Source of the DNA: Rhizophagus irregularis
Lineage: Eukaryota
Assembly: GCF_026210795.1 (NCBI RefSeq)
Contig: NC_089430.1
Span: 1,054,001 to 1,118,000, forward strand
Length of the DNA stretch: 64,000 bases
Direction of reading: 5' to 3'
The position numbers were made by a program, and so were the translations under genes. The notes beneath the pieces were generated by a model. That model searched no databases and was not told the DNA's origin. It saw only the letters and a list, made by a program, of their open reading frames with translations. Shown piece after piece: positions 15,999-62,919 of this stretch (position 1 is the stretch's first letter; every line of letters starts with the position of its first letter).

Positions 15999-16044
15999 TT
16001 GTTTTCTGTTCCCCTTCCCCGTTCCTGATTATCATTGTGCTCTA

Positions 16045-19000: not shown

Positions 19001-21666
19001 AAGTCACTCACCTCTCCGAATCTGAATGTGCCTCGGCAACCAGCAGTATCCGTTCCTTGGTTAAACATAAGGCCAATTTTTCACGTGTACTCCCTGATTC
19101 TATTTTGTTTTTATCTCAAGGCTTGGGATTGATTAATTTATTTTTTCATCAATCACAAACACATTTAACTAATTTATTTTTATTAGCTAATTCTTCTTCT
19201 TCTTTTATGAAAAATTTATTATTATATAGATTACGTTTAATTCAATTTTCTTTTTTGATTCCTATTTCCCCATTGTTAGTTAAAGATTGGACTATATGGT
19301 CTAAACTTTTTGCTTTCAAACAGGATTATATCGCTTGCGCTATTGCTCTCCTGACCACCACTCCTTTCAAGTTGTCACGTTCTCAACTTTCAACTTTGCC
19401 TGCCCTTACTATACCTGATGGTCATACACCTTTATTTGAAGTTATGACTCCAAATATTTTTATATCTTATTTCCGACGCCTTAGAAGTCTGCAACTTTAT
19501 TACCTATCTCAGTTCATCACGCCTCAAGGAACCCATATGATCACTTGGAATGTTTACTTATCCAATTTATCAAGTAGGAAAGGTCATCGAGTCCTCCCGC
19601 ATAAGTGGTTCAATGACATCCGTCAAAACGTCACTATTCCAAATTCCAATTCTTTCCTTTTGGATCAATTCTCCTCTGATGCTACTCCTTCAAATGTTGA
19701 CTTGATCCCAGCCTTTGGTTCCTCTAGAAAATCCATGAAATGGATCGTGACTTTGGACGAAGATGGTTCTCCTCTTTTTGGAAAACAACTCAGCAAACAA
19801 CAATATTCTTGCAAGATTGTCTATTGGACCTCTGATTGTGTGACTCGACCTAATGATGTTATCACGCTCGCTCCTTGTCCTGGTTGTTCTAAACATGTAC
19901 CGGTTTCTCATACTAAAAACCAACCATCCGATGTTACTCCCTTATGTATCATTCCAAAACTCTCTCCACTTAGATCTTTAATTCTTCCTACAACGCAGGA
20001 GCGTATTAGATATGACACCGTCAATATTACTTCTCCCTTCACTTGGGCGGACCTTGATGAAACTGTTCGATCCTATTATGGTCGTTTGGACACTCAACCT
20101 AATTTTTCACAAGTAGATGTGGTTACTCTTCCTACTCCTTCTTTTCCTCCCTCTTTGGACTCGGCTGCCTCTTTTGCTTTTGCTGCCTCGCCGTTAGCGA
20201 CTCCTCCTGATAACCATTATTGTTTTTATACCGATGGTTCTTTAATTAACCTTGGCACTCCTGTTGTTTCTATGGGTTGGTCTTGGGTTCAAGTCCTCGA
20301 TGGCGCTGGTTTTTTCCAATCTATCGCTGCTCATGCTCATGGAATTATTCACAATTGGCCTTCCTCCACAAGAGCTGAAATCGCTGCTATACATGCTGCC
20401 CTTACAGTCACTCCACCCTCTTCAACAGTCACTATTCATACTGACTCTCAATCTGCCATAGATGGTCTTCGTCTATGTGCTACCTTTTCTTATTCCAATA
20501 GTAGGCTTTATTACAAGACCACCAATTTCGAACTCTGGGCTATTATTGAACGTCTCATTTCTTCCAAATCTTTATCCGTCATGGCTGTTAAAGTGAAAAG
20601 TCACTCTGGTAATTTCTACAATGACTACGCGGACTCTTTGGCCAACTCTGCGCATTCTTCTTCTTCAGCAATTCTTCTCTCTGATCTGGACCAAATATCT
20701 CCTCACGATTTCTTATTAACATATGATGATATTTTATGTGAATCCAACCCACGACGCCTATTTAAGCAATATTCGCAAATGCTGTGGATGTATAGATTAA
20801 CGCGTCTATCGCGTTTTAACTTTACCATTGCTTTATCTTCTACCCCAGATTTCGTGATTGATTGGGATCTTACCTGGTTCTCGTTAAATTCAGAACCTCA
20901 GCATGATGCCTTTTTTACTCGTGCTCATGCTTCCTCTCATCACACCTTCAAATTCAAACTCTTTTTGGAAGATTTACCTATCTTGGAACATCTTAAAAGA
21001 ATTCGCCCGGACTTGTATATCGACATCTTATTGTGTCGTTCATGCCTCGACTCCAAGGAAGATTTCATGCACTTGTTTATGTGCAAATGTAGACGAATCG
21101 CTATGGAACAGATTCTCCTCTCCTACCAACGTCATTTTATCAACAAACTTCAAGAAGCTGGTGATCTCGTTAAAAAAGATCCCTCTTTAATTATTAACAA
21201 ATTTAAATCTCTTCCTTGTTGGTCCTTTTCTTCTTCAAATTGGACTTCATATAGTCTTGTCTGTGGCTGCCTTCCGAAATCCTTTGTTGAATTTTTTGAA
21301 GAACTTTCTGTTCCACGTAACTCTGCAATGAAGGTTATCTCTGCCATCCATAATCACTTTATCCAAAAGATCAGAAAACGAATTTGGCTACCGCGCTCCT
21401 ATGATAAATCTAAATGGGAAGACGCGATGAATATTACTCATAAACTCAAACTCTCTCGGCCTTCAAATTTGCCGAAGCCTACGTACTTACCTTTCTCAAC
21501 TTTACCTCCTCCGACCCTTTCCAATGACGCACGTGACTCCGACGTTGATTATTTAAAGAACTCGATGAAATATGGTTTGCCTTGGTTTAATCACTATTCG
21601 GGTTTTATAAGTCGTCTAACGGTGCAACTTACTAACAGCTTTAGCAGGGTGGTGTGTCGATTTTAA
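16045..21666 (+). CDS. LINE ORF2 polyprotein: AP endonuclease, reverse transcriptase, RNase H, C-terminal Cys/His motif
   Basis: APE: SFNVNGL, GDFN, RIDYVW, SDHNP. RT: RPITLL, DISKAFDSV, QGEVISPLL, FMDD, FLGVW. RNase H: YTDGS, RAEI, TDSQ, KSHSGN..ND.AD. C-terminal CRSC...HLFMC. First ATG at 16045. Confidence 0.95.
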   Translation: MSDNFNYDTFVRNPPNPVDTYIFSEHESLFTTSNSSPIPNSFNISSFNVNGLRHNSQVKIEQISNFFNLKHISFGGIVDTHLSPKQIHFLSKRLPNYTVFSSDIDKTKQVNSTGGVSLFIEKSLASHVQDFVSHSSRILSVDLYFKGNIKLRIFVIYIPPISDSKLRSETIDLLLQLLVQAKQQNFYHAICGDFNMHLDTYYPIYFNRPATASQRAYRLLHHLLSHGYEETFPVNASNSLGTFHRDDQVTRIDYVWSCPMLKSYALTSYIFDAQDTCSSDHNPIITYFDDSLLVASIKVARAKQLQRQTRRVFKLDSVTTQQWESFSTHTDSLCDVSPSIFSTWHINQQCEYLHSRIVKAANTSLPSVTVGNQHVPTMPKDLEALTQHYRFLSRLLHSIRLLRKYPSTYYNRYERTWSIHFIRLQKILYLYKKVIPSPPILPTSLSTCRQDEFKFLLESLKTISCALHGFLLLKEKDFQDSSIRAKLDDRDTHFETDISSFINSALSRTRRRITLDRVFIDHPTQPKLLTDPHDIDDAVINHFQNSVPIKSTPPDNISALPERWSSAYRPMDDVDSSIYNSLLDPPTLEEWLSTVSSMPNDKAPGPSMITYEMLKHLGSNTSALVLILVQSCLYTADIPDLWRQAMVFPIPKPHEWKCQLMNTRPITLLEVIRKSLVKLFYNRLASILASKEVLKGGNFAGLPGGSCRDPIVVLESIIHDAHVNKSPLWILSQDISKAFDSVDLKMLRFALERIKLPASATKFILSLFMKRSNRVFTAHGTTPSYRVCIGIDQGEVISPLLWVIYIDPLLTILKNEMMDPYILHAPSLSNPLAEISSDELRINNLVFMDDSTLISSSKLGMELMLSITEEFYQINNTSANHNKYVLITNSLPPTSVSSPSPVVFDLQLSELNKVPSISIVPIAMNSSFRFLGVWFNVAGSRDFVKKQVARECNSFAATVRPAKLSAKQVVYLHNTVLIPKLEYRMQVTHLSESECASATSSIRSLVKHKANFSRVLPDSILFLSQGLGLINLFFHQSQTHLTNLFLLANSSSSFMKNLLLYRLRLIQFSFLIPISPLLVKDWTIWSKLFAFKQDYIACAIALLTTTPFKLSRSQLSTLPALTIPDGHTPLFEVMTPNIFISYFRRLRSLQLYYLSQFITPQGTHMITWNVYLSNLSSRKGHRVLPHKWFNDIRQNVTIPNSNSFLLDQFSSDATPSNVDLIPAFGSSRKSMKWIVTLDEDGSPLFGKQLSKQQYSCKIVYWTSDCVTRPNDVITLAPCPGCSKHVPVSHTKNQPSDVTPLCIIPKLSPLRSLILPTTQERIRYDTVNITSPFTWADLDETVRSYYGRLDTQPNFSQVDVVTLPTPSFPPSLDSAASFAFAASPLATPPDNHYCFYTDGSLINLGTPVVSMGWSWVQVLDGAGFFQSIAAHAHGIIHNWPSSTRAEIAAIHAALTVTPPSSTVTIHTDSQSAIDGLRLCATFSYSNSRLYYKTTNFELWAIIERLISSKSLSVMAVKVKSHSGNFYNDYADSLANSAHSSSSAILLSDLDQISPHDFLLTYDDILCESNPRRLFKQYSQMLWMYRLTRLSRFNFTIALSSTPDFVIDWDLTWFSLNSEPQHDAFFTRAHASSHHTFKFKLFLEDLPILEHLKRIRPDLYIDILLCRSCLDSKEDFMHLFMCKCRRIAMEQILLSYQRHFINKLQEAGDLVKKDPSLIINKFKSLPCWSFSSSNWTSYSLVCGCLPKSFVEFFEELSVPRNSAMKVISAIHNHFIQKIRKRIWLPRSYDKSKWEDAMNITHKLKLSRPSNLPKPTYLPFSTLPPPTLSNDARDSDVDYLKNSMKYGLPWFNHYSGFISRLTVQLTNSFSRVVCRF

Positions 21667-22121
21667 TAATGGGCGCATTGTTCGTTGGTTTGTTTGCATA
21701 GTTGCTTCTTCTTAGGTTGGAATATATCTAGGCGGGGGATCAGGATAGTTTTAGTGTTATGCGATTTTTTCCTTTTTGAATTAATTTTATAGCTTTATTA
21801 CTGTTTTGGAGACTATATAGTTTTGTTTTTAGTTAATTTTATTTTTCTTTTTTGTACTTTGAAAATTTTATTTTATTTTTGTAAGTTCGTTAAATAAATT
21901 TAATAAAGATAAAGGCTACTATGCCATATTTGCCTCGACAAGGATTGATGACCATATAACCTTATCATCAGGTATCCTTGCATTTTTTAATAAGGACTGA
22001 TGACCATGTAATCTTATCATCAGGTATTCTTGTATTTTTTGATAAGGACTGATGACCATGTCACTTGGTTATTGTAAATTGAAGAAAACTATTAGGTATG
22101 TAGACACATACAGAAAAAGAC

Positions 22122-26066: not shown

Positions 26067-26222
26067 AATGGGTGGCTTTGATTGTGTAACCATTGCTAAT
26101 TGATGGTTTGTTAATAAAATTTCATTTTACGGCAATTGTTTTTTTATTACAATTAATTATATGAAAGTGTACATATACTGTATACATTGAACTATACAGT
26201 ATATTTATAAATCAAGGTTAAA

Positions 26223-26686
26223 GTCGTCGGGCTGGATGTGGGAGGTGCAAGCACCACCCACCTCCGGGTCTACGACCCGTCGCAGTACCTATATCGCCCC
26301 TACGGGGCTCAGAAATCCCCATATATCCGCCACAATCTGGGACAACATATGGAACAAATATATATACCAAATAACTAGAAAACAATAGAAAAGGAAGGAA
26401 TAATGGATATAATGAGAGGGTTGTCCCGGATGTGGCAGATGTGGCAGATGTTTCAGAAAAAATATGAGAGGACATTCCCCCAGAAAAAGTTTTATTTTTA
26501 CCCCCTCAGATCCGCCACATCCGGAACATCTGGAACAAGTCAGGATTCTGTCTAATAATCTGTTGGAAGCAGTGAGACAGCAAACCAGGTAAATTAGTAG
26601 GTAAGCCCCTAGAAGGTCTATAAAGCCAGTAAGACCAACCCCGTCCCGCTCCCATCAGAAAAAATAAGTAATTGAACAATGGGTAT
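26223..26686. repeat. Terminal inverted repeat of copy B (integrase side)
   Basis: GTCGTCGGGCTGGATGTGGGAGG...AACAATGGGTAT is the reverse complement of 40489-40951 with few mismatches. Confidence 0.95.
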
Positions 26687-26725
26687 TGAGAATAGAGCAT
26701 ATCCAGATAAGTTTAGAAGACAGTA

Positions 26726-27045
26726 CTAATCCGTCTTCCTCTTTTTTGCCTCCTTAAGGCATTTATCAATACACTGTTTACACGCGTCATCAGAATCTAA
26801 GATTTTCTGTCCAAGTTTTTTGCATTGCCGATTGTAAGCCGTCTGCTGTCTCTTAGCAGCGGTTTCTTTTTTTTCTCCTTAGTCTTCTTCTTGATCACCC
26901 AGTCTATTCCAGTAAAAGTATTCTTATGCATACCACAAATTGTGCAGTCACCATGCAGCCGGTAACGCCCATTTGTAGTCATATCTTGTATTTCACTAGC
27001 CGTCTCAGTTTCCTTCTTGCACTTTAGGCAGTAAAAACGTGTCAT
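26726..27045 (-). pseudogene. Zinc-ribbon protein (DUF5679-like), frameshifted in copy B
   Basis: FYCLKCKK...NGR..L.G.C.ICG..K..F; intact homologue at 62260-62580. Confidence 0.65.
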
Positions 27046-27089
27046 TTTAAGATTTGAAGTCTAAAACCATTCCTTTAATTTGTCGTAAT

Positions 27090-28181
27090 ATGTCGCATTT
27101 AGAGAATTATTACAAATACTACAATCTCTCCGGAGTACCAGCACGAATTCTAAAAGGTGAGGAGCACTACAACCTATACAAAAAGCCCCTAAAGGAGAAG
27201 TCAACAGAACGCCCAAAGGTAATTGTATGGAAACCAAATGCAACACATCAGGCAGATCTTGCAGAGATGCCAGTTGACCCCAAAGGATTCCACTATTTTC
27301 TCGTAGTGGTAGAAGTTGCAGGAAAGAGAGTTGATGCAGAACCCCTAAAGGATAAGACTGCAAATAGAGTTCTAAACGGGTTTGTCAAAATCTACAGAAG
27401 AAATCGTATCAAGCCTCCAACACACCGACTAAAGACAGACTCCGGATCAGAATTCACTAACGACCAGGTACGTGATTTTTTCCTGAACAGCCTAGGGGTA
27501 ATGATGAGGTTCGGAGAGCCAGGAAGGCATAAACAGCAATCTTATGCTGAAAGAGCTATCCAAGCCATCCAAGAAACCCTTCTTAAACGAATGGTAGCAC
27601 AGGAGTTGAAAACTGGGGTGACATCCGTAGAATGGTCAGAAGATTTCCATAATATAGTGAATAAAGTAAATGAACTCTGGCAGAGAAATCCCCCAGACAT
27701 TCCGACAGAGTCACCCAAAGTGTCAAAAAAGACGGATCTCCTCTCTGAAGGAGCACGTGTCAGAGTCAAGTTAGATGAACCTATTTCTGTACTTGATAAC
27801 AAACTTCACGGAAAATTCCATACAGGAGACATAAGATGGAACCCAAACATTCGTGTAATCAAAAAAATGATACTCTCACCTGAACAGCCTCCTACATATC
27901 TTCTTAACGGACCACATGGTCGATTAGGTGTATCCAGATGTGCATATACCCGAAAGGAATTGCAAGTAGTTCCTATTAATGAAAAGCCTCCACCTGACTC
28001 TGTGATAAGAGGACAACCTGAAAGATTTGTTCTTGAGCAGATACTTCGGCATCGCATTAGAAAAGGTCAAGACCAGTATTTGGTTAAGTGGGAGCGCTAT
28101 CCAGACACTGAGGCTACTTGGGAACCTGCTGACCAGTTGAAGGAGGATGTCCCTGACTTAATTCGCAAATTTTGGGAATAA
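27090..28181 (+). CDS. Retroviral-like (rve, DDE) integrase with C-terminal chromodomain, intact
   Basis: HQADL, TDSGSEF, YAERAI (D,D,E triad); chromodomain EQILRHR....QYLVKWERYPDTEATWEP. First ATG at 27090. Confidence 0.92.
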   Translation: MSHLENYYKYYNLSGVPARILKGEEHYNLYKKPLKEKSTERPKVIVWKPNATHQADLAEMPVDPKGFHYFLVVVEVAGKRVDAEPLKDKTANRVLNGFVKIYRRNRIKPPTHRLKTDSGSEFTNDQVRDFFLNSLGVMMRFGEPGRHKQQSYAERAIQAIQETLLKRMVAQELKTGVTSVEWSEDFHNIVNKVNELWQRNPPDIPTESPKVSKKTDLLSEGARVRVKLDEPISVLDNKLHGKFHTGDIRWNPNIRVIKKMILSPEQPPTYLLNGPHGRLGVSRCAYTRKELQVVPINEKPPPDSVIRGQPERFVLEQILRHRIRKGQDQYLVKWERYPDTEATWEPADQLKEDVPDLIRKFWE

Positions 28182-28205
28182 AAAAAATAGAAAAATTAAA
28201 GGGTC

Positions 28206-28945
28206 TTATTTTTTATCCCCTCGATTAGCATCAGGAACTATCAGGATAAAAACATTCTTCCCATCACAGGTAAAGGCTATATGTTCACGTGATTCATGGA
28301 CATCATAATTGTAACGTTTCAGACACGTTCGGCTTAACCCAATTTCCCTATGCTTGTAACCACTTAAGACTGCAAGGTCCTCAGTGATAGCATAATCAGG
28401 GGTAAGTTTGATTGTCACTCCCTTTACCATGCCAAATGTCCTACCTGTTCCTGAAGTACCAGATATGTTGTATGTAATACTCTTGTCGATATCCAACCCT
28501 AATTCCTCAGCAGCTTCTCTCTGAATAAAAGACGCATTAGCACAAGTGTCTGCTAAACACTGAATTGCTATCCCATTAACCTCCCCATCCAGTGCTAAAA
28601 GATCTTTAGTATTCTCTAAACGAGCTATGTCAATATCCATAGGATCGTCTACCCTGATATCTTCTTCTTGTTCCTCCTCAACTAGGTCCTCCGGAATCTC
28701 TGTGACTTTTCTAGCAGACAATAACTCCTCCTGAAGAATCTCACGGAGTAATTTCCTAAAGTCTGCAGACCTTAACAGGCTTAATAAGTCATTCTTAGTA
28801 ACAGCTTTTGCAGGTGTAGACTTACTACCAGTAACTTTCACAGGAATCTTAACAGGGGTTGCTTTGCCTTTCAATGGCACACTAGAAGAGCTAACTGCTG
28901 TCTTATTTGGGGACGACTTAAGAAGTTTTGAGATACTTGAACCTA
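28206..28945 (-). CDS. Retropepsin-type aspartic protease, in the -1 frame relative to the Gag-like ORF
   Basis: GEVNG..IQCLADTCANASFI..EAAEELGL, flap ISGTSG, IGLSRTCL. Frame is open back to the A-run before the Gag stop. Confidence 0.82.
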
Positions 28946-30373
28946 CTTTTTTTTTGACCCAACACGAACCATATAGACATCACCATCTTTTTCTTTCAAT
29001 TCTACCTTTTCACCAAAACTCGCAGTATCAATGTCCATAGCATCATCATTAAGATCGAGGTTTCTCATTGCTCGGGCCAAATCCAGATCATCACGTCTAT
29101 CTTTAGCCTTCTGAAGTTGTTTTGTAAGTATTTTAGACGTCCCACGTTTATATCCCATAATAAGATCAATAGCATTTTGATGATCATCCAAAGTCCACTC
29201 AGGAGCATCAGGGTCATCACCAACATCATGATCTACATAACCATCATCCCAATCAGGATCCTGAGGATCCTGAACAACACGTCTCTGTGGTTTTGGTCGA
29301 ACAGGTTTAATCTGCTGTCTATAGACTGGTGGATTACGAACTGGCCGAGCCTGTAATTGTTTAAATTGCACCTGAAAATTCTTGGTAAGTTCCTCAGCTT
29401 GAGCCTTAAGTAACTCTTGTAATTGTTCTTGAGTAACCCCAGATGACTTTGATGTCAGTACGACAGGTTCCTGTTTTCCTAACAGAGGTTGAGTTACATC
29501 ACTGTAATCTGCTTGAAGTCGTCGATTTCTATCTTGTAACCCCAAGCGCATTTCAGCCCTTCTCCGTTCTAAATTTCTCAGATGTTTAACCAAGTCATCA
29601 GGATTAAGATTACTAAACCTTTCTGCTTCAAAAATATTATCAGCCGAAAGACCTCTAAAGAACTGGTCGATAATAAGATCATCAGTTAGTTTTAGTAATT
29701 TTCCAGCTCTCTTTACAGTTCTATAAAATGCATCGACTGGCTCATTTTCCTGATAAAGACTGTTAAAACGGATACGTTTCTTTTCATCTAAAATAGTTGG
29801 AAATTGTGTTCTAAGCCAATAAAGCGCCTGGTTAGGTTTAATACCTGAAAAAACTATAAGATGATTATTAGCAGCAGCAACACCAGCATCTGCAGTAGCT
29901 GGAGCAACTCTATCTGTCGGACGAGCACCAGCTCTTTCCCAAGCTTTATTTCCACCTATTAAATCATGAGTAGGAATAAATGTTGCTCTAATAGTTGCTA
30001 ATGCATTATTTATATCTCTTGAATAGATTTGTGCTTCAGACCCATTTACATAGGTACCTGCATTTGGTCCTCCTGCACCTTCTGGTATTACTAATGCTAC
30101 AAAAGCAGCTAAATTAGCTCCACCTCTTGAAGTGATACCAGAAAGTTCCCAATTTTTTCCTGTAATTTCTCGATCAAACCATTCAGTTGCTTCACCAGTC
30201 ATGCAGCTTCTAAGTATACCCATAGCTCTTTTCCAAGACTCTGGTGGCCCTCCAGCAGCATATGGGTTAAGATTAATAGTATCAAGATAACCCATATAAA
30301 GCCTAACAAATGTATCAATATCATCAATAGCTTTACCCTCAAAAATCGGCAATTCTATCGCAGTGGTAGCCAT
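28943..30373 (-). CDS. Retrotransposon Gag (capsid)-like protein, 476 aa, intact
   Basis: LPIFEG..DDIDTF, LRSCMTGEATEWF, and an MHR-like LYQ.NEPVDAFY...K.......D..IIDQFFRGL. No zinc knuckle seen. Confidence 0.78.
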   Translation of the reverse strand: MATTAIELPIFEGKAIDDIDTFVRLYMGYLDTINLNPYAAGGPPESWKRAMGILRSCMTGEATEWFDREITGKNWELSGITSRGGANLAAFVALVIPEGAGGPNAGTYVNGSEAQIYSRDINNALATIRATFIPTHDLIGGNKAWERAGARPTDRVAPATADAGVAAANNHLIVFSGIKPNQALYWLRTQFPTILDEKKRIRFNSLYQENEPVDAFYRTVKRAGKLLKLTDDLIIDQFFRGLSADNIFEAERFSNLNPDDLVKHLRNLERRRAEMRLGLQDRNRRLQADYSDVTQPLLGKQEPVVLTSKSSGVTQEQLQELLKAQAEELTKNFQVQFKQLQARPVRNPPVYRQQIKPVRPKPQRRVVQDPQDPDWDDGYVDHDVGDDPDAPEWTLDDHQNAIDLIMGYKRGTSKILTKQLQKAKDRRDDLDLARAMRNLDLNDDAMDIDTASFGEKVELKEKDGDVYMVRVGSKKK

Positions 30374-31152
30374 ATCGTCTCTAGTGGATTGTTTAAAAGA
30401 GGTGGAGGAGGGTTCAATTGTCTAATTCGAAACCATTGTACCTGAATTCTAAGAGCAGCTATCTGTTGGAAAAGTCTATTTCTAAGTCTCCCTAATGTCT
30501 GAATCCCAAAACGCACCCTATTATTAGCATGTGCTAGCTGTACATTAACCTGTCCAAGTTGCACATTAACCAATACAAGTTGTCCTCCAGTTCGAGTAGC
30601 CCTCAGCCGCCAATGATTTAAAAGGATATTACCACGATTCACAGCATTTTGAGCCTCATTACGATCCCTTACTGCTTGAGTATAATCTGCTTGTAATACA
30701 TTACGTTCATGTCATGCCTGATTACGTTCACCTATAGCCTGTCGACGAAGCTCTACCATAGTATCATAATCTCTTTGCAGGTTATGGTTTTCTTCTATGA
30801 AATTATCATTGGCAGCACGTATAATAACTAATTGACATTCTAAATTAGTAAACGTTTCATCAAATGCATTTATCTTACCTTGTGCAAAAACTAACAAATC
30901 TTTTGTAATACCAAGTTCTTCATGTTTTGCTTTACAGCGATACATTAATATATTAATAATATGTTTGATTTGATTATTTGCCTCCTGTATCTCTGAATCA
31001 ACAGTTAAACGACCCCTGGTAGTCAATAAATTTGCATGAGCCTTTAGTATTCTAACTAATTCATCATCGTCTTTTTCATTGACCAAGTGTGCAGGAGGCG
31101 GTCCAGTAGGTTCTGAAGGAGTATAAACTGGAATTGGTGTTGATGTCGACAT
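30355..31152 (-). pseudogene. Coiled-coil protein upstream of Gag (265 aa; one CGA>TGA stop at 30712)
   Basis: Intact homologue at 58152-58949; heptad-rich; ends PPPPLLNNPLETIWLPLR overlapping the Gag start. Confidence 0.75.
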
Positions 31153-31183
31153 AGTATTTAAACTAAGTTAGAATAAAATTCAA

Positions 31184-32407
31184 ATGGATCTTTATATATA
31201 CAATTTGGACGAGTATACGACCGACTCAAGACAAGGCAATGAGTTTGCTCCATCATGGCCCTTTCGATTAGCTGTAGCAGGTAGCTCAGACTCAGGTAAG
31301 ACAACTATGATCATTAATTTGTTAATGGGTGACAAGAAAGCAAAAGAGGATGGTAATCGGTATGTACTATGTGATGCAGTACTTTTAGTTGGCAGATATC
31401 TTGACGAGCTGAAGTGGGCAGTTGTACATGATTTTTTCGAAGAGGAAAAGATCCCATTCACTGCAGTAACCCATAGTGAGATTTCAGAGATTGACTCCTT
31501 CGACCCTACTCAAGCTACTGTGGTAATCTTCGAGGATCTGATGGATGCACCTAAAAAAATCCAGGATCTCATCACTGGTTACTTTACACATGGACGACAC
31601 AAAAATATTTCATGTATTTATGTAGCCCAAAGATTCTTTGCCATTCCTAAGGCTATTCGATAAAATGTTAACTACATCTCACTGCATGGAGGTCATGGGA
31701 GCCTTACAAATACCAAGAGAATCATCCGCCTATATACAGAAGAATCAGAGTCATTAGCACCAGTAATTGATGATCTTACTCTGCAACGTGAATTTGTAGT
31801 GTTTGATCTTAGACGGTCCAAAAGTAATCCACTGTCCATTCGAGTAAGATGGGATACTAGTCTCAGTTCTATCACAGAGCAATCTCAGTTCAATCCTAGT
31901 TCGATCTCAGTTCAATCTCAGTTTGATCCAAGCTTGAACCCAGTTCGATCTCAGTCTGAACCCAGTTCAATCACAGTTCGATCCAAGTTTAGTCCCTATA
32001 GTCAGAAAGCTGTATTTGAAGCAAAAAAAGGTGGACACTTGATTGAATTTGCTCGGGTATTTCCATCCCCTAAAGAACGTCAACATTTACTTGTACCTGG
32101 TGTCTTAGCCAAGAATGCAGATACCTGGATTAAATATGTCTTTCGGGAAGCTTATGGACTCTCTGGTAAGACCCTAGGAGCTGACTTTCAGGATTTCTTA
32201 GCAAAAGTACAGGGTAGGACTGCAAAGACTGAAACTCTGAAAACTGAGAATGTGAAGGAGTTATTCTCCCGATATGAAGCCCTGAAGTCTAGTCGCCCTC
32301 TGGATAATAAACAAATAATAGAAGGTATTGAAGTCCTTCTACAGATCTTTTCTAAGAGCCACATGGACCGTCGAGCATTACAAGTAGGGATTAATAGTAT
32401 CTTGTGA
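31184..32407 (+). pseudogene. A32/FtsK-HerA-type DNA-packaging ATPase (407 codons; one stop at 31661 that is GAA in copy A)
   Basis: PFRLAVAGSSDSGKTT (Walker A), VVIFEDL (Walker B), FTHGRHKNISCIYVAQ (Arg finger and sensor Gln), IPKAIR.N. Confidence 0.88.
31864..31995. repeat. 11-bp tandem repeat, 12 units, inside the ATPase ORF
   Basis: Consensus CAGTTCGATCY; also present in copy A at ~23700-23831. Confidence 0.85.
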
Positions 32408-32951
32408 GAATATCAAGTAATTCGTCTGCAGAAGCTTTAAGAATCATAGCACTTTTTTTACGGCCTTCAAAGTCAATCCTTAACATCTTAGCCTTCAACC
32501 CTATTGCTCCTAAAGCACGAGAAGCAAAGTTCTTAGTCATTGGATTACTTATATGATTTACATAGTTCTCATAGAATGTAGTGAAAGGCTCGTCAATACC
32601 ATCTGGATATGTATCCCTTAGAAATTGATATAAAGCAATTTCTCCACTGTCATAACCTATGGCTATAAGCTGTTCGAGAAGCCACTTCCTAATATCTTCA
32701 TATGGCTCTCCATCCATAATATTCATATCCAGTTTTTGTGTAAACAATTGTGTAAAGTCCACATTACTTCCCCGACGAATGATCTGAACTAACTTATCCC
32801 TAGCAAGTCCCAAGGCTTGTAAAGGTTCACTCTCGTCGCCAATCTTCTTTATAATCTGTCTATACAACACGCTGGATAATCCTCTATATGCTGTTTTTGG
32901 AGTGATTACTCCACAGTTTTGGCATTGGTTTATTACGATTGATGTTGACAT
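32391..32951 (-). CDS. Hypothetical 186-aa protein (N-terminal CxxC; C-terminus resembles a winged-helix domain)
   Basis: Intact ORF. LYQFLRDTY...FTTFYENYV......TK.FASRAL..IGLK parallels LFQFIKD.Y...FY.VY..Y......SK..ASRIL..LGIN of the element's own helicase. Confidence 0.65.
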   Translation of the reverse strand: MSTSIVINQCQNCGVITPKTAYRGLSSVLYRQIIKKIGDESEPLQALGLARDKLVQIIRRGSNVDFTQLFTQKLDMNIMDGEPYEDIRKWLLEQLIAIGYDSGEIALYQFLRDTYPDGIDEPFTTFYENYVNHISNPMTKNFASRALGAIGLKAKMLRIDFEGRKKSAMILKASADELLDILTRYY

Positions 32952-32996
32952 GGCTATCTTTCTTTATGTAAAAAAGAATTATTCAAAATTAAGTAA

Positions 32997-33577
32997 CTAT
33001 TCAGAGCAGTCCTTGCACAACTTGTCCGTTAAGTCACTTGGGCTTACAGGCATGAGACATTCCCTACACAACTCAATATTTAGCTCTGCAAGTCTCGGGT
33101 ATGGTCCTCCAAAGTTCGTGGACGACCGGAAGGACCGGAGGAAGGTGTCCCGTTAGTCATATCTTGCTGTAAGATAAAATCATCATATTCATCTTGGTCA
33201 GCCTGAATAGCGGCCCTGATTTGTTGTATATCATTGAAAGTTAACCGCTGCCCATCAAGATTTTCCTCATTATAGCGTGTTTCATTGATGATTTCCTCTA
33301 TAAGCGCCTCTTCTTCATAATGGACAAGGTAGTAATCCTCAACTACCTCATAGTCACTCTCAATCAGTCTATGATATGTTCTAGTACCACGTCGAACATA
33401 ACGTCCTGTATCTGTATTTAAATATACAGGTTGCTCTTCAGGTGGAGGTGCAGTTTGTCTACGGACAAGCCTTCCATCAATATAATCATGGGATTCCATA
33501 ACTATTCAATTAAAGGTATCTCCACCGATAATAATTGGACGTCCAGTTATAGGGTTAGCTATATAAGGGTAAGACAT
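32997..33577 (-). pseudogene. NPxTGR-repeat / zinc-finger small protein (copy B, disrupted)
   Basis: Homologue of 22122-22699, with a different stop and frameshift. Confidence 0.6.
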
Positions 33578-33700
33578 GTCTTTTTTCTGTACGTGTCTAC
33601 ATACCTAATAGTTTTCTTCAATTTACAATAACCAAGTGACACGGTCATCAGTCCTTATTAAAAAATGCAAGGATACCTGATGATAAGGTTACATGGTCAT

Positions 33701-33979
33701 CACTGGTAAAAAAATGATTTATCCTACACATATCTTACACATATTGGGTACTCAAAATGTAGAAAATCATACACAAATAATACACATATCATACACATAT
33801 CGGGTACTAATATATATATCATACATATATCAGGTACCTGATAGGTATACTATATATATAAGTACCCGATATGTGTATGATATGTGTATTATTTGTGTAT
33901 GATTTTCTACATTTTGAGTACCCGATATATATAAGATATGTGTAGGATATGTGTAGAATAGACCATTTTTTTACCAGTG
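33701..33979. mobile_element. CACTA-type foldback MITE inserted in the 53-bp array of copy B
   Basis: TIR CACTGGTAAAAAAATG / CATTTTTTTACCAGTG; 3-bp TSD CAT; near-palindromic throughout. Confidence 0.88.
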
Positions 33980-34300
33980 CATCAATCCTTGTCGAAAAAA
34001 TGCAAGGATACCTGATGATAAGGTTACATGGTCATCAGTCCTTGTCAAGAAATATGAGGATACCCGATAAATAAGTTACTGGGTTATTGGCCTAGAATGC
34101 ATTCATGGAAAAACTATGGATTATATTACAGAAAATGTGAACGGAGTTCATGTCACGTGATACCCTGAACAAATGTGTAGAGTGTCACGTGATTTCATGC
34201 GGTACGTAGATCATTTCATTTTTGGGCGATACCCGTTCCACAAAAAATCGATTTGGTAAGAATGCGTTTGGAACCCTGTGTAACATAAATTTCCTTTTTC

Positions 34301-34715
34301 GGGGGTCGTCTAAAGCGGAGTCAAATCACGTGATTTGATATAATATGAGTGAACTAATTTTTTTATGAATCAAGTTTAACATAAACTTGAAAATCATAAA
34401 ATAAGTGTATTTTAGCCTGCTCTACGAGTTTACTTAAGGTTGAAAGGTAGATTTTGAATACTGGTTTTCACTTTATATATTAGCAAAAGCTTTTTTGCCG
34501 ATCATATCCAAAAATGGATAGACAAAAATGAAAAGTCAAATAAATCGAAAACGGCATTCAAAACTCATTTTGTCATTCTAAGTAAACTTGCAGAGCAGGC
34601 CAAAATACACTTAGTATATATGTTTAAAAGGTCATATATATATTGCGAAAAATTTTATTTAGAAAATAAATTTTTTTCAAAGTCACGTGATTTGACTCCG
34701 CTTTAGACGTCCCCC
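34301..34715. mobile_element. MITE with ~33-bp TIRs
   Basis: GGGGGTCGTCTAAAGCGGAGTCAAATCACGTGA / TCACGTGATTTGACTCCGCTTTAGACGTCCCCC. Flanked by duplicated TTTTTC (TSD 6-10 bp depending on boundary choice). Confidence 0.85.
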
Positions 34716-34791
34716 TTTTTCGGTAATTCGGGATTACGCGGTAATGCTGGCCGGATCTAAAAAATATAAACTAATTTCGTACAGGAGCCGC

Positions 34792-35262
34792 TTATGCAAG
34801 AAGTTCTGCTAAGGTTTTCTCAGCCTCATTCATAGTGACAGCTCGCTTTGGGGGACCTGTTAATGAGTCCTTAGTTACATTATAATACAACTCGAAGAGG
34901 GCCTCAAGTTTGTCTAAAAGAGCTTGTTTATTCTTGTATGATTCATGAATCTTTGCTATCTTAGCAGTATATGCTGCATTATCTGGGAAGAGTTTTCTGG
35001 CCACGAACTTCACATATGATACAGGAGACTTTGCTGTCTGGATTCTCTTGATATACTTCACATGATCCTGGACAAGGTAGCTGGTTTTGCTAAACCCAGA
35101 TACTAATGCGACTACTATAGTGTCTTTCAATGCACGGATAATCTTGAGGACAGTTTCATCAGAAACAATGGTGAACTGATTGTGTGATGCATTATAAATA
35201 ACTTTATCACTAATGCTGTCAGTGCTGTTAATAATGCTTGCTAATTCGGTATATGTTGACAT
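34792..35262 (-). CDS. Hypothetical 156-aa protein (copy B)
   Basis: Intact; homologue of 12627-13097. Confidence 0.7.
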   Translation of the reverse strand: MSTYTELASIINSTDSISDKVIYNASHNQFTIVSDETVLKIIRALKDTIVVALVSGFSKTSYLVQDHVKYIKRIQTAKSPVSYVKFVARKLFPDNAAYTAKIAKIHESYKNKQALLDKLEALFELYYNVTKDSLTGPPKRAVTMNEAEKTLAELLA

Positions 35263-35375
35263 GATTCCTTATACTTTTTTGTACTTTGTAATAAATAGGA
35301 ATCTTCAAATTGACTTTACATTCAAGCAAGAAAAAATATATATACCTACTGTAAATTCAACCGCATTCTTGGCAA

Positions 35376-37256
35376 TCATGTCCAGATAACCTTGTTTGCA
35401 TTTTTCACATGGCAGTATCCTGCGGTTTCAAACTTGAGAGCTTTCAATGCTTTGGATGCATTTTCTGGACAAGTGATAAGTGTAGGACTACTCGGCTGTT
35501 CCTCTAGAATAAATCCATCTGTATGGATGCGTCGTACTTTATCCTTATATGGTTCTAATAACTCTGAAGTCGTCTTCCGTCCATGTGCTAATAAGAATGG
35601 AGTGATCCTAGGATACTCACCCTTGAAGGGACTACCTGGGTTTGTAAACTGGAATCGCCACTGGTCAGATCCTACTGGTACGATGGAGTCAAGTGTGTGG
35701 CCTTCTGGAAACTTGAATGGATCTGTTTGATCTGTGGTGAGTGTCTTGTAATTGCGTTTCCTCTGGCAGAGTGCTCCCCATAGTGTATTGAGAACTCTTT
35801 TTGCAACACGACCGGCCACGCCACCCTGGTTCTTTATATTGAAGAGAAAGTGGACATACTCACCAAATATTACAGTCCCAGGAATTCTTGCTTCTCTGTC
35901 ATATATCAAGGCATTTGGCTTTACATCCTGGATTAACTGTATATCGAGTTCAAGTTTCTTTGCTCGTTGTAAGTCAATGAATGTATAGACTCCCCTCTTA
36001 TTCTGTCGGAAGAGAATGTCATTACCACTTACCTTGCCCTTGGGCGCTCCCTGGGAGCTAGCACGAAATAATCCATACAAGGCATAACCTCTATGGTCTA
36101 CAAAGTCTTTGAGTATTTGAAACTTACCTTGTCAGATTGGAAAGTTTGCATTTGATTGCTGAATACTTGGATACAAACTTGTCACGTCGTATTGCCTTCC
36201 ATAGCCCTTCCATTCATTGTCTGCCCAGATAAGACCTCCCATCATTGCATCACTTATCCACTCTGCTTCAACTGGGTCAAGAGGATCATTGGCTGGAACC
36301 CCTACACTAAACCGTTCAAAAAGCCAGAGTGCAGTTCTCTTGTACGACCAGTTGTGGTAAGATAAGTCGATTCCTAGACCGAACTTCTTTGTAGCCTGTA
36401 GGAAGGAATCCCGCTCTTCATGGATCCTCTGGTATGTTTCCTCAAGTGTTTCATATATTCCAGTTTTACAATTCTTCTCGATAGGGATGAAGGAGTAACT
36501 ATCAGAGTTCTTACCTTTCTGAAACTGTCCAACTGTAAGAGACTTAACTGTCTTACCATTGTATATTGTTACTACATTATTAACCCCATCTTCACGATAA
36601 ACAAAGGGAGACTTTCGTTTTCTATCTAATTTGCTAGGGTGGAGTCTTCCGGGATTCAGTGCAAGAGAGTAGTGGCCTTCAGACAGGATAAGTATTGCAC
36701 GTCTGTCAGATTTGCTCTTGGAAATTTGAGTGGAATCCCCTACAATATTAAGTGCAAGGCTTCCTGCAAGTTGTTCAACCTTATCCATATATGAGACTGG
36801 AACTGGAGCATCACGATTGAGACCTAATGCCTTTTTGATATACTCGGGCTTTTCGATTGACTTTGGCATTTTAGAGAATGTGCCGTAGATATATTTCAGG
36901 CATTCATACAGGCAATCATTTAGCTCCCCGTTGCAACCCCCTGCAACCGGTGGGGCATCTCTCACATAAATTATGAATCGTTCAAAATAATCAGGGTCTG
37001 CGTCATCCGGTAGTTGTGCTTCGTCGTAGTGGTCCAAGAGTGAGAAAAGGCTGGCTGGTTGGTTTCCTGATGTCCATCCACCAGGTTTCCAGTTTTCATA
37101 GGGGAGCAGAATCTGAAATTTATGTGTCGGATACCAGGATTGGAGTCGCTGTCCAAGTCTTGCTATTGCTCCTCTGGAAAATCTTGCGCCTGAATACTGT
37201 AATTCTTTGATATCCGGTCTTGTAGGTAAAGCACGGACAATCTCTGAATAAACCAT
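35376..37256 (-). pseudogene. Protein-primed-type family B DNA polymerase with OTU-like N-terminal region (~626 codons; one CGA>TGA stop at 36132)
   Basis: AMMGG, YDVTSLYPS (motif A), AKRVLNTLWG (motif B), RIHTDGFIL (variant motif C). N-terminal NDCLYECL...ILILSEGHYSL. Confidence 0.88.
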
Positions 37257-37339
37257 TTGATGTATTTATAAATTGTGTTCAGTTGTAATATAGGTTTTTT
37301 ATACAAAAAATATAAGATAACTAAGAAGTGCTTATCTTA

Positions 37340-39882
37340 TTAAAAGGAGTCAATCTTGCTGCATACACGATCAAGATCCTCTTCATCCCAGTCGTCGACA
37401 ATTCCATTGGCGGCTTCCCATTCACGTTCCATATCAGTTTTTGGACGTTCCTCTAGGATTTCTCGTGCTTTACCCTTATTCATCTTCATAGTTTCATAAC
37501 CAGAGGTGGTAGGAATAATCTCGGCATCACGATCCTCCTTGTATACTCTTATTAGATCTGCGAGTTCTTTACGGCTATGTGTTTTAGGTAAGTTCCCATT
37601 ATATTCGATCTAGTCCTTGAAGCGGTCTACTACCTCCCTAAGGTAATACTGGTACTCGTCCTCAATACGTGTTGTGGGACATTCCTCTACTTCAAACGCG
37701 AGTATTTCCCAGTCATAGTCGTCTGACACGTCTTGGTACTTAGCCCATAAATCCTTACCTGTATTGTAGAGATCATTGAAGACCTGGTCCTTTGAATTCT
37801 TGACCCATGGCTTACGATCCCATCGGTGCCTTTCATGCCAAGTCCAGTGTGCTCGAGTACCTTCCTTTGGTTCAGGGTCCCAGTCAACTTCTAGTTCTGT
37901 GTCGGGTTTTGGGATAGGTTGCTCTTCAGGAGCCGGTTCTGGGTCAGGCTTAGTGACAGATGCAGAAAATTCTGCAGGAGACTCAGGTTGTTGTTCAGGA
38001 GCTGGGTTCACAGTTGTAAAATCTGAGTCAGATAGCAAGTCATTTAAAACGTCGTAGTCATCATCAGCTTTATATGCAGGTTCCTCAGCAGGCGGCTCAT
38101 TTTCTTGATCAGGTTCCTCATCAGATAGATAACAGTCCGAAAAGCTATCTATAGGTTCATCAGTATCAGATTCTATAGGAGCTGGAGATTCCTCAGGAAT
38201 AGGATCCTCATTGATGACAGGTGCGGGTTTTACCTTCAAGCAATCGGGCTTAAGTGGTACTGGTGGTGGAGTCTTTTTGGAAACTGGTTTCTTTTCAATA
38301 GGCTTCTTCTTGACAGGAGCGGGTTTTTCCTCAGCAGGTTTCTCTTGTACGTCTTGTGGATTATTAGCAGGAATGCTATATATATTTGCCAAGAACTTTT
38401 CTAAGGCTTTGGGATCAGATGCGGGCTTCTCGGGAGTTTCTACATCTATTCCTTCTATATTGATTTCATCTGTTTCGTGGATCCATTTTTTGGTGAGAAA
38501 CTTTTTGTAAAGGTCCTCCCTAGATATGCTGTAAACTCGTGGTGTTGCCTTACCTACACGTATTTTTCTGCTATTTATACCCAACTCATTTGATAGGATT
38601 CTAGAAGCGTTTATCTTTGATAGGGGTGTAATGCAATGAGTTTCACAGTATGAAGTATATACCCTATAAAATTCTTGAACAGGTAGGTCGGTTATATGAT
38701 TTTTTACTATGAGGTAAATGTCCTTTATGAATTGAAATAGGGGTGGGAGAGTTGATATGATGTGATCCTGCTTAGATGTTGTTATAGGTGGTGGATTCCC
38801 ATTGAAGTCTGGGTAAACGTCTGCAATGGCTCTCAAGTAAGCATAGAATGCCTCACTGGCACCTGGGTATTTCATAGCGTCACTGAGTTTCTTAAAGTAG
38901 TTGAGGTCTCCCTTGCGGGATGGTGACACATCCAAGAACACTGTGCGCCTATCGTCATTCTCCACTCTGAGAGCATTTTCATTAGTGAGTACAATGGTGG
39001 ATATAAAGTTTTTGTAATGTGTTGGCGTCTTGTATTTTTCATGGATTTCCATTATGTCACCTGTTACCTTATCCTTCAATGATCGATACAGATTATTCCA
39101 CTGGCTTTTTTCTGTAGGCATTTCCTTGAGGAGGAGAAGAACCTTACCTTGTAATTGCCCATTGAAACTTCCAAGAATCGTTTGAGGATCACTGGTCTTA
39201 TAAACAAGTTGAGTACCTAAGACACTACGTTGAATGAAATCTGTTATAATACTTTTACCCCAACCCTGTCCAGATTTCAGGTAGAGAATCGAATACATTT
39301 TCCTTCCAGCTGCCACACTGGCCAACCACTTTATGATATACTCAGTAAGATTCCAATCGCCTGAACACCAGATATCCTGAATGTGAGAGAAATAAATTTA
39401 ACTGCGAGGTGGGTTGTAGATTCAAAAGTGGATATCGGACGCAGGATATGGAGAAATCCTGGGAAGATATTGAGATAAAGTTGGCCACCTAGTTTAAAGA
39501 TACGGGATTTTTGAGGGTCACAGGTAGCTACACATACAGTACTATATTCGATCATAAACCATTTGTTGATATTAAATTCAACCTTTTGTGAAGGACCCTG
39601 TTCAGATTGTGTGTAAAAGACTTTGGTAATTGGACGGATAAGTTTATTAATATTTTTATCAGGGATGTGCTCGAGGTTTTTGATTTCTGATCGCCACATG
39701 AAGACTCCATGTGGGTTGGAGCAGGGGATAAAGTAACTGCAAAGATAACCTTTAGCTTGATTGAGATCCCTCATATTCTTTGCAGCGTTAATGAGCCGTT
39801 TAAGCTCATCAATACTAAAAGCCTTCTTCTGTTCACCGAACTTGGGGATAACTTGAGCTTGAGTGCTAGTTTGGGCAGTCAT
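37340..39882 (-). pseudogene. SF3 (D5-like) helicase, copy B (one frameshift, one late stop)
   Basis: SGQGWGKS, LLLLKEM, IVLTNEN; colinear with 1397-3955. Confidence 0.85.
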
Positions 39883-40174
39883 TTTTTGTTCTATCAAATC
39901 GAGTACTAATTTATAGTTACCTAATCTTCAATTGCCGAATATTTTTCCAAAGATCTGCACTCCTACCAATTTACCCTCCTGTAGTCCTATGGTCCTGCGA
40001 TTCTGCGGTCCTCCGGTTATATCTGGTTATCTTCTAGGGGTAAAAAAAAACTATAAACCACGAACCTTTACGACTGCTCTAAATCTTCCCTTCCCCTTTT
40101 TCAAACTACATATATCTGAAATCCAAACCGCTCAAGAGCTCCTTTTACTATAGTTAGCTTTTTTCTAGTGTCCG

Positions 40175-40459
40175 TTAACTCTTTACAAGCCTTTTGATAC
40201 GCCTTCCATTCAAGTTCACAGAGGATACCCTCCTCCTCCAATGATTGGCCAAGAGCATCATTTGCTTTTTCCTTCTTTTCACTGCCCTGTCGTATGCCTC
40301 CTCGGCTTTTTTATGCCGCTTCCAGAGTACTCGTTCAGCTTCAGCTCTCCAGATTGGGCTGACTTCTAAAAGATGTGGCCCAAAATTGCTACTTGGAATG
40401 TGTTCCAGGATATGGCTTACAAGTTCGGGGATTACTAATACTGCGTGCGGGGTATACAT
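40175..40459 (-). CDS. F-box-like small protein next to the TIR (possibly frameshifted at its 3' end)
   Basis: VLVIPELVSHILEHIP......LLEVSPIWRAEA fits an F-box-like pattern. Confidence 0.55.
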   Translation of the reverse strand: MYTPHAVLVIPELVSHILEHIPSSNFGPHLLEVSPIWRAEAERVLWKRHKKAEEAYDRAVKRRKKQMMLLANHWRRRVSSVNLNGRRIKRLVKS

Positions 40460-40488
40460 GTTATCTGTCCTTATAGGTTACTTATGGT

Positions 40489-40951
40489 ATACCCATTGTT
40501 CAATTACTTATTTTTTCTGACGGGGGCGGGACGGGGTTGGTCTTACTGGCTTTATAGACCTTCTAGGGGCTTACCTACTAATTTACCTGGTTTGCTGTCT
40601 CACTACTTCCAACAGATTATTAGACGGAATCCTGACTTGTTCCAGATGTTCCGGATGTGGCGGATCTGGGGGGTAAAAATAAAACTTTTTCTGGGGAGAT
40701 GTCCTCTCATATTTTTTCTGAAACATCTGCCACATCTGCCACATCCGGGACAACCCTCTCATTATATCCGTTATTCCTTCCTTTTCTATTGTTTTCTAGT
40801 TATTTGGTATATATATTTGTTCCATATGTTGTCCCAGATTGTGGCGGATATATGGGGATTCCTGAGCCCCGTAGGGGCGATATAGGTATTGCGACGGGTC
40901 GTAGACCTGGAGGTGGGTGGTGCTTGCACCTCCCACATCCAGCCCGACGAC
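40489..40951. repeat. Terminal inverted repeat of copy B (helicase side)
   Basis: Inverted copy of 26223-26686; ends CCAGCCCGACGAC. Confidence 0.95.
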
Positions 40952-41820
40952 TTAAAACACATGGAATAAAAATTTGCTTGTAAACATTTTTTATTAGTCC
41001 GAAGTGTAACAAAGGACTATATACTATTCGTATCGGTTTCACAAATGTTTGTTGTACATCCGGCACGTGATGATGTGCGATCGGTTTCCTTTTCCTAGTT
41101 AGTATGAAGAATTTTTATTAGTAATTATATACCGGTATTTGATTAGTACCGGGTACTATTCAAAATCGGATTTTGATTAGTACCGGGGTACTATTCAGAA
41201 ATACCCGAATGTAAACTTGAATAATACACAGGTACTATTTATGGGGGGTACTATTTGAGGGGGGTACTGTATGCAGCGCTATACGGTACATGAAATATTT
41301 TTGTGTCGTCCATAAGGTTGCTTGCTGAAACCTGTTTGGCCTAATGCTGAAAGGTGAAACCTCTTATATAGTGCCGAAATGCTGAAACGCTGAAACTGCG
41401 AAACCTGTCAAAATTGCGAAACTGTCAAAACATGCCGAAACCTCTATAATAGGTTTCTCCGTAGTTTCGGCATAGTTGATCATAAGATTTGCATATAGTT
41501 ACGCCAAGTTACACCAATTAATAATATAATTTAGATGATCAAATAATCTACAGATAAAAGATTAAACTTCAATATTTTACCGTTGTCTTAGTTCTTTTAA
41601 GCTTTATCTAGTGTTAGAATTTTCATTTCTAACTCCCATATTAATATTATGATATTACACGTTTTTACAGTTTTTTTTTAAGGGGCTTATATTCATTAAA
41701 GGAAAATGCGTAACATGCATTTAATAAACCCAATTCTGTCATTTCCTTTAACACTGAACTAAAGTTTCTTTTACTTTCTTCCATTTTCTTAATAATAATA
41801 TTAATAATAAACTGTTTCAA

Positions 41821-45355: not shown

Positions 45356-46028
45356 TGTCACCCACGTCTGCCACCTGTGGATAAACACATCTTTCTCATT
45401 TAACTTTATTTCTCGTTACTTTGCTTGGTTTAGATTTTATTTTTCTTTTAACTTCTCACTTTCTTTCTCATTTATCCGTAGTATTTATTCTCAATACTAC
45501 CACTCATTCATAATATTCCCAAAATATTATTCTTTATGTAATATTTATTCTTTCAAATATTACCACTTTATTTCCTATAAACTGCGAGAGTTCTCCTAAC
45601 TTCTTATTATATTTCATACAACAAAACGAGAATAACTCCTTCACTTTACTTTTCTGGACTTAATAGTATAATATTAATTAATTCTCAAGCGTACAATGAG
45701 CATATTCAAGATAACTTTTAATAATTAATATTTATTTTATTAAATTTGAGTCAAAAACTGACTGCAGAATTCCTAACGAATCCCACCTATATTTATACAT
45801 TTTTAAGAAAATTATTTCTACTATTTCTAACTTTTCTACTAATAAAAATTTAAGAACAATAAGAAAATAAAGATGTATTATCATATGACTATCTCGTGAC
45901 TAAACTAAACTAAACTATAAATATTATTTTATCAGTTAATTATTTATCCATCAGTTAATTATTTATCCTTGTTCTATTTGGTCTTTTATCCATCTGCTCA
46001 CGTGATTATCCTGATTTCTCGGGTTACA
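45356..46028 (-). repeat. 3' LTR
   Basis: TGTCACCCACG...GGGTTACA; matches 56339-57012. Confidence 0.93.
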
Positions 46029-46069
46029 GCTATCCCCCCAAGAAAAATTTGAGTCCCATCAAATTCTAA

Positions 46070-46530: not shown

Positions 46531-46548
46531 CCTCTTCCTCCATTTAAA

Positions 46549-62867: not shown

Positions 62868-62919
62868 CTATAGACCTTCTAGGGGCTTACCTGCTAACTT
62901 ACCTGGTTTGCTATCTCAC

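Follow-up and report, generated by a model that had tools for sequence, protein, structure and literature searches.

A Polinton-like DNA element of Rhizophagus irregularis encoding a predicted retrovirus-type capsid protein and retropepsin

Within a 64,000-nucleotide window of the Rhizophagus irregularis genome (contig NC_089430.1, positions 1,054,001 to 1,118,000 of the forward strand; coordinates below are those of the window), a 14.7-kb unit at 26223-40951, here called copy B, combines replication, integration and packaging genes of Polinton/Maverick type with a cassette encoding a Gag protein and a retropepsin. By their defining features, it is neither a jelly-roll polintovirus nor a long terminal repeat (LTR) retrotransposon, and most likely behaves as a DNA element that replicates itself, integrates and has a retro-type shell. 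We lean, at slightly better than even confidence, toward copy B being a decayed copy of a Glomeromycota Polinton/mavirus-like replicon whose intact members, judging by gene content and structure modeling, would use a Gag of the retroviral capsid (CA) fold and a retropepsin, and not a jelly-roll protein, as the particle around their own linear DNA. The closest protein matches are mostly annotated as R. irregularis (best 120 of 191 matches). For comparison we used a sister copy in the same window (copy A) and ten soil-metagenome loci selected by their Gag, L002 and L003 among them. The cassette comprises the following features.

28943..30373, minus strand: Gag, 476 aa, intact; residues 1-275 hold the CA N-terminal domain (NTD) and C-terminal domain (CTD) and are followed by a low-complexity tail that has no CCHC knuckle
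29846..30157, minus strand: fast-evolving insertion of ~100 aa in the CA-NTD (residues 73-176), between model helices 60-69 and 180-204
28946..28955, minus strand: A9G run immediately preceding the Gag stop, a predicted -1 slippage site; same run in 9/9 junctions
28206..28955, minus strand: -1 frame with a leader of ~110 codons and a retropepsin that has DTC as its catalytic motif; the first Met lies at 28640; Pfam Asp_protease_2, E = 8e-8
30355..31152, minus strand: coiled-coil open reading frame (ORF) that runs over the Gag start in another frame; stop at 30712-30714 in copy B, open (265 aa) in copy A

By sequence, Gag matches Pfam Retrotrans_gag weakly (E = 0.04), and its profile found nothing below E = 1.4 among PDB sequences; a profile search collected 327 Gag relatives at 50% clustering, with weak Retrotrans_gag matches in 23 of the 44 scanned. 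An AlphaFold2 (AF2) model of residues 1-275, based on an alignment of 51 sequences (pLDDT 83.4, pTM 0.73), consists of three N-terminal helices, a mixed insertion of ~100 aa, a long helix and a four-helix CTD. In a VIA structure search of this model against 48,161 chains, rows 1-38 of the 50 considered were all retroviral, retrotransposon or derived/domesticated CA, and unrelated rows reached Z ≤ 4.5. The best match is the PEG10 CA-CTD (Z 10.7, root-mean-square deviation (rmsd) 2.3, 84 residues aligned). Alignments across both CA domains were obtained with Copia (Z 9.4, rmsd 9.4, 160 aligned) and HIV-1 (Z 9.3, rmsd 6.4, 156 aligned) and likewise, at high rmsd, with murine leukemia virus (MLV), Rous sarcoma virus (RSV) and dArc1. 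Atlas places Gag with Retrotrans_gag clusters at 0.93. Because the AF2 model, VIA, the Foldseek ranking and Atlas agree, the 476-aa ORF is, as modeled, a CA-fold Gag and not a jelly-roll protein; the Gag identity proposed in an earlier note on this DNA therefore holds, the CTD being firm.

A CCHC zinc knuckle is absent from copy B Gag and its stand-alone relatives and was found in 9 of 265 proteins, these nine being distant relatives. In a midpoint-rooted CA tree of 41 of the 51 rows (10 dropped for gaps), copies B and A, L002 and L005 fall in a knuckle-less clade (support 98), with the knuckle-bearing relatives outside. In distant relatives, several knuckle-bearing ones among them, the coiled-coil ORF and Gag form a single in-frame fusion. 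The earlier note had judged the unassigned ORFs, of at most 265 aa, too short to be a major capsid protein (MCP) of the double-jelly-roll type; an MCP is indeed excluded here by the coiled-coil character, but length alone is an insufficient argument, since this ORF has 457 codons in a distant relative. The overlap of the coiled-coil ORF with the Gag start (30355-30375, minus strand) is in the same shifted frame in 9/9 loci, and may represent a second recoding or reinitiation signal.

The junction of Gag and protease reads A AAA AAA AAG followed by a stop in all nine copies that cover it; the stop is TAG, TAA or TGA. The protease occupies the -1 frame in every case, and this frame is closed just upstream of the A9G run in L002-L004. 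The ~110-codon leader before the first Met of the protease has a ratio of nonsynonymous to synonymous substitution rates (dN/dS, calculated with our own Nei-Gojobori script) of 0.14-0.21 in three pairs, so the leader codons are translated. A Lys run is found at the C-terminal end of 16 of 18 hand-picked full-length stand-alone relatives, and there is a fused Gag-protease gene model in Entrophospora candida, with others in R. clarus. A -1 slip at A9G into the protease frame is the simplest reading of the junction. The retropepsin named in the earlier note is borne out by the Asp_protease_2 match and the DTC motif, although it is not merely a 144-aa ORF but the end of a ~250-codon -1 frame that overlaps the Gag stop.

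To place the cassette within its element, we examined the metagenome loci. An ATPase or integrase gene adjoins the cassette in 8/10, the remaining two contigs ending within it, and a convergent integrase follows directly after the protease in 4/4 loci extending that far. L002 and L003 are 99% identical in their overlap, share an inverted end and jointly represent, from one terminal inverted repeat (TIR) to the other, an element of ~12.5 kb with genes for a helicase, an intact 626-codon family-B DNA polymerase (PolB), the ATPase, the coiled-coil protein, Gag, protease, integrase and a DUF5679 protein. The largest gap in the coding part of L003 is 191 bp, and this TIR-to-TIR gene set has no room for another large gene. 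Identity between copy B and L002/L003 is 61% for CA, 60% for the integrase, 55% for the ATPase and 48% for PolB, with a CA dN/dS of 0.27; in this comparison, the conservation of CA matches that of the core genes. No reverse transcriptase (RT) domain was found in any of 57 protease relatives (801-2285 aa class; all ≤921 aa), and the search found no long Gag-Pol fusions (1564-4465 aa), which is weak evidence. Linkage, purifying selection on CA and the RT-free protease relatives support the earlier proposal that the Gag-Pro cassette has long belonged to the element and is not a nested retrotransposon. It is highly improbable that the cassette is a neutral remnant left by a nested LTR retrotransposon after RT loss: Gag-Pro with a -1 junction is of retrotransposon type, and the window is full of nested insertions, but the cassette occupies the same position in families 40-60% diverged, its CA core and protease are under purifying selection, and no LTRs flank it (no direct repeat in 27901-31400), as the earlier note had stated. 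The ends of copy B, including its target-site duplications, and its core genes are as follows.

26218..26222: left target-site duplication, TTAAA
26223..26686: left TIR, 464 bp, 97.6% identical to the right TIR
27090..28181, plus strand: rve integrase, an intact ORF with a chromodomain at its C-terminus, convergent with the protease; Pfam; 59% identity to L002
31184..32407, plus strand: A32-like packaging ATPase with a C-terminal extension, internal stop at 31661-31663; Pfam Pox_A32, E = 7e-9
35376..37256, minus strand: short PolB, ~626 codons, internal stop at 36132-36134; motifs DVTSLYP, KRVLNTLWG and IHTDG
37610..39882, minus strand: helicase of superfamily 3 (SF3), D5-like, in two parts owing to a frameshift near 39334-39397; DUF5906, E = 8e-17
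40489..40951: right TIR
40952..40956: right target-site duplication, TTAAA

The two TIRs (26223-26686 and 40489-40951; 97.6% identity across 464 bp) and the TTAAA duplications correspond to the TIRs and 5-6 bp target duplication of Polintons/Mavericks, which are further defined by an rve integrase (here rve, E = 3e-9, with Chromo, E = 9e-17) and an A32/FtsK packaging ATPase (here Pox_A32). Together with the other Pfam matches they confirm the unit described before, a 14.7-kb segment with PolB, SF3 helicase, packaging ATPase and chromo-integrase. The DUF5906 SF3 helicase is a feature specific to group 1 of the mavirus-related elements (pMVRE), as defined in section 7 of PMC13215967. The copy B ATPase is 49% identical along its length to an intact 416-codon ORF of L002, and the helicase of L003 is a single 797-codon ORF. 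PolB of copy B is 45% identical to the intact L003 PolB; its match to DNA_pol_B_2, the Pfam family of organellar and viral PolB, is weak (E = 0.0017), whereas the L003 protein matches PF03175 (DNA_pol_B_2) at E = 1.8e-6 with motifs A-C present. An AF2 model of PolB was poor (pLDDT 43), and a PDB sequence search with PolB gave no match. The N-terminal half of PolB (36690-36940, minus strand) has conserved Cys and His motifs that look vOTU-protease-like by eye only, and 11-bp tandem repeats at 31861-31992 (plus strand) lie in the ATPase C-terminal extension, where the frame stays open.

No RT, ribonuclease H (RNase H), jelly-roll or adenain family was detected at E ≤ 0.1 in six frames read with X at stops, an insensitive scan that also missed the weak PolB and Gag matches. 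Pfam likewise gave no double or single jelly-roll capsid and no adenain/Ulp1-type maturation protease in the ORFs or six frames, in agreement with the absence of a jelly-roll, a cysteine maturation protease and RT/RNase H noted earlier. The remaining features of the element are these.

26797..27045, minus strand: small Cys-rich DUF5679 protein, Pfam E = 2e-17; adjoins the integrase in L002 too
32391..32951, minus strand: 186-aa ORF, 22% conserved in L002/L003, its C-terminal part resembling a helicase C-terminal domain
33080..33499, minus strand: acidic 139-aa ORF without a match in L002/L003
33500..34791: non-coding; contains 52-bp repeats and, at 33701-33979, a palindromic insertion without a counterpart in copy A
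34792..35262, minus strand: 156-aa ORF without a match in L002/L003
40175..40459, minus strand: 94-aa ORF without a Pfam match

The 186-aa ORF matches the helicase of the element itself (blastp E = 3e-4), and its Atlas lead is Pox_D5 at 0.84, below the 0.9 mark. The 139-, 156- and 94-aa ORFs were judged by sequence only, and a small single jelly-roll among them is conceivable. Together with a mavirus-like replication module (short PolB, SF3 helicase and rve; PMC11161782), they are what favors reading the element as a satellite whose jelly-roll capsid is provided in trans, or comes from an unrecognized gene, and in which Gag-Pro is an accessory. We judge this improbable: nothing in the distant TIR-to-TIR relative matches the three ORFs, there is no room for an MCP in it, and Bellas 2021 (PMC7805220) found no MCP for the Glomus intraradices element.

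As we envisage it for the CA-fold Gag reading, the short PolB and SF3 helicase would excise or copy linear TIR-ended DNA, as expected from the biology of elements with a protein-primed PolB, and the chromo-integrase would insert it, leaving the 5-bp duplication that is itself observed. Gag would be made in excess and a minority would very probably slip -1 at A9G to give Gag-Pro; Gag would then assemble into a CA shell, to be matured by the protease. In the least certain step, the retained A32 ATPase would pump ~13-15 kb of DNA into the shell, in a subfamily without a zinc knuckle for RNA capture. The fast-evolving CA insertion may face outward and meet host factors. Nine Polintons without an MCP also have no ATPase and protease, according to PMC4028283; unlike them, this element keeps its ATPase, which we count for a packaging role. 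The particle of Ty3 measures ~47 nm (PMC6525542), and 14.7 kb would amount to a 35-47% fill of a shell with an inner radius of 22-20 nm; the DNA thus fits a Ty3-sized shell, which we count for DNA packaging. Tentatively, and at somewhat less than even confidence, we go further and propose a chimeric virus: a protein-primed dsDNA replicon of the jelly-roll lineage with its whole structural module swapped for a retro-type capsid and protease, in which the A32 motor packs DNA without reverse transcription, and which would be the missing capsid of mycorrhizal Polintons.

PEG10, Arc and Copia CA, the closest folds, package RNA. Gag-Pro could accordingly form Arc/PEG10-like or intracellular particles that carry RNA, proteins or the integration complex of the element between the nuclei of coenocytic hyphae, while the ATPase has another job, such as DNA segregation. 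The knuckle kept in distant relatives (9/265) and the lack of a visible vertex protein point the same way, but there is no RT for copying RNA back, the PolB-linked subfamily has no knuckle, and an ATPase with 55% conservation adjoins the cassette; we consider such carriers fairly unlikely.

The CA insertion evolves differently from the CA core. In close pairs, pN/pS is 0.06-0.44 in the core versus 1.2-3.7 in the insertion, and pooling two independent pairs gave Nd/Sd of 25/3 in the insertion versus 10/11 in the core (Fisher p = 0.003; p = 0.04 versus neutrality). With few pairs, and with the decay of dead copies included, this is suggestive of diversifying selection. The insertion may sit at the place of the exposed cyclophilin loop of HIV, a position on the shell that the two papers checked did not confirm. 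Diversification of this kind, along with a stand-alone CA-CTD-like ORF in L002 (E = 0.0015), would also suit a captured Gag that acts in defence or copy control, in the manner of Fv1 or Ty1 p22, by poisoning the capsids of retrotransposons or competitors, in a replicon that is a capsid-less integrating plasmid. The latter is what PMC13215967 proposes in calling the fungal lineage likely plasmids. This explanation strikes us as distinctly unlikely; such a factor would have no need of the conserved frameshifted protease, of the coiled-coil ORF upstream or of the packaging ATPase, yet all are kept across ~50% protein divergence. The L002 ORF itself (7555-7899, plus strand; 115 codons, beside the TIR) resembles a stand-alone CA-CTD in a search with our own hidden Markov model, and by analogy is possibly a Ty1 p22-like copy-control factor.

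Several observations weigh against a Gag-built, DNA-filled particle. Shell assembly and DNA packaging by Gag are predicted from gene content and the modeled fold. To our knowledge, no A32-type ATPase works with a CA shell, and the genes of the element include no recognizable portal or vertex protein. The two-domain VIA alignments have high rmsd, so that the CTD is firm and the NTD is supported via full-length alignments only, and Foldseek gave no match at E ≤ 0.001, its top hit being PEG10 (E = 3.6e-3). Rapid change in the insertion would also fit a restriction-factor role. As the ten metagenome loci were selected by Gag, they show linkage of Gag to the element and not the share of elements with Gag. 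At the junction, no stable hairpin was found 3' of the slip site (z -1.5 to +1.5), for which reason transcriptional slippage or an intron is possible instead of a ribosomal -1 slip, and public gene models do link Gag and protease through a predicted intron; four raw-read runs gave 141-253 reads each, patchy, mostly divergent and without a joint in the cassette, too few to decide splicing or expression. Among the rows searched of the pMVRE supplement (PMC13215967), Asp_protease_2 occurs with PolB in only 6 group-1 elements versus 128 Glomeromycota elements, although Pox_A32 co-occurs only once there, so that sensitivity may be low.

The element family is known, as the Glomus/Rhizophagus Polinton, the Rhizophagus MELD virus and the mavirus-related pMVRE group 1, and the novelty implied in the earlier note was overstated. 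A figure legend in Starrett et al. 2021 (PMC8502044) already gives a PolB element the labels 'Matrix/Capsid/NC/Pro', which are not discussed in its section 3.4. Going by the legend, these labels very likely belong to the lineage of the Rhizophagus glomeromycete fungus MELD virus (NCBI taxid 2707321), whose host genus is that of the closest protein matches of our element. Copy B differs from the labels in having no NC knuckle, and the frameshift, fold test and selection are absent from the available text of PMC8502044. The Gag-Pro architecture is thus probably not unreported; it was, in all likelihood, labeled once in a figure and then overlooked. New here are the A9G-stop with a -1 protease, purifying selection on the leader and the fast-evolving ~100-aa CA insertion. 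In the literature searched, which was poor in subscription journals and lacked the 2006 and 2015 primary papers, we came across no text presenting this Gag as a capsid.

A catalog in Virol Sin 2026 (PMC13215967) lists 128 TIR-bounded Glomeromycota pMVRE; the fungal lineage is said there to encode no viral structural proteins, and 'gag' is absent from the main text. Our element resembles its group 1 in being TIR-bounded, from Glomerales, mostly 13-15 kb (30 rows) and equipped with DUF5906, chromodomain, rve and DUF5679. It also resembles the G. intraradices Polinton/Maverick in host lineage, in PolB, rve and A32 ATPase and in the lack of a detected MCP: Bellas 2021 found none, a preprint (bioRxiv 2026.06.19.733378) detected none beside Glomus/Rhizophagus A32 ATPases, and PMC11952901 describes Mavericks as expanded in Glomerales. 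It differs in that no Gag or aspartic protease is recorded in the available parts of these three sources. With mavirus virophage it shares, by gene content, a short PolB without most of the exonuclease, a separate SF3 helicase and rve (PMC11161782). From Ty3/Gypsy (Metaviridae) Gag-Pro, PEG10 and Arc, which share its two-domain CA fold, retropepsin and -1 Gag/protease junction, the element differs in having no RT, RNase H, LTRs or knuckle, an integrase on the opposite strand and a CA-NTD insertion of ~100 aa. Mavirus itself builds its capsid from double and single jelly-roll proteins and possesses a cysteine protease, all of which went undetected in our element. Searches of viral contigs gave no relative of Gag or PolB, and prokaryote genomes none of P0179.

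All users of the retroviral capsid fold known to us package RNA or reverse-transcribe. A DNA-to-DNA replicon with a CA fold and a packaging motor would, if true, amount to an exchange of capsids across two virus realms, for which capsid replacement in bidnaviruses (PMC11161782) is a comparable case. It would explain the abundant Glomerales Polintons that have an ATPase yet no detectable capsid, and suggest a route of spread for elements in a major plant symbiont for which there are no transformation tools. That a CA shell packages DNA is a directly testable claim.

Several genes of copy B are broken: PolB (36132-36134), the ATPase (31661-31663) and the coiled-coil ORF (30712-30714) are each interrupted by an in-frame stop, and a frameshift splits the helicase. 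Copy B lies inside a pogo element, which sits inside copy A. Copy A is 92-96% identical to copy B, in reverse orientation, and scattered across 1309-63490 by nested insertions; its Gag has 2 stops. The earlier note had taken the same cassette at the same position in copy A as independent support; it is present there, but in a sister insertion of 92-96% identity, which is weak evidence of stability. At least four insertions split copy A: a hAT-like element (5726-12337), a long interspersed nuclear element (~13754-21924, its RT ORF open at 15874-21663), a block at 24082-57705 (pogo with copy B inside, plus a second hAT copy) and 62691-63135. A heavily decayed Gypsy-like element at 45356-57012 has two ~660-bp LTRs of 99.6% identity around an AT-rich, stop-ridden interior, in which a plain CA-NTD is left at 53599-53865 (minus strand); near-identical LTRs sit oddly with so ruined an interior. 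As a donor of Gag-Pro this element was rejected, since no tblastn match at E < 1e-4 was obtained from any protein compared. Synonymous divergence (dS) between copies B and A is 0.06 in CA (28943-30373 versus 58931-60358) against 0.14-0.18 in integrase, ATPase and protease, a low CA value that hints at recombination among copies.

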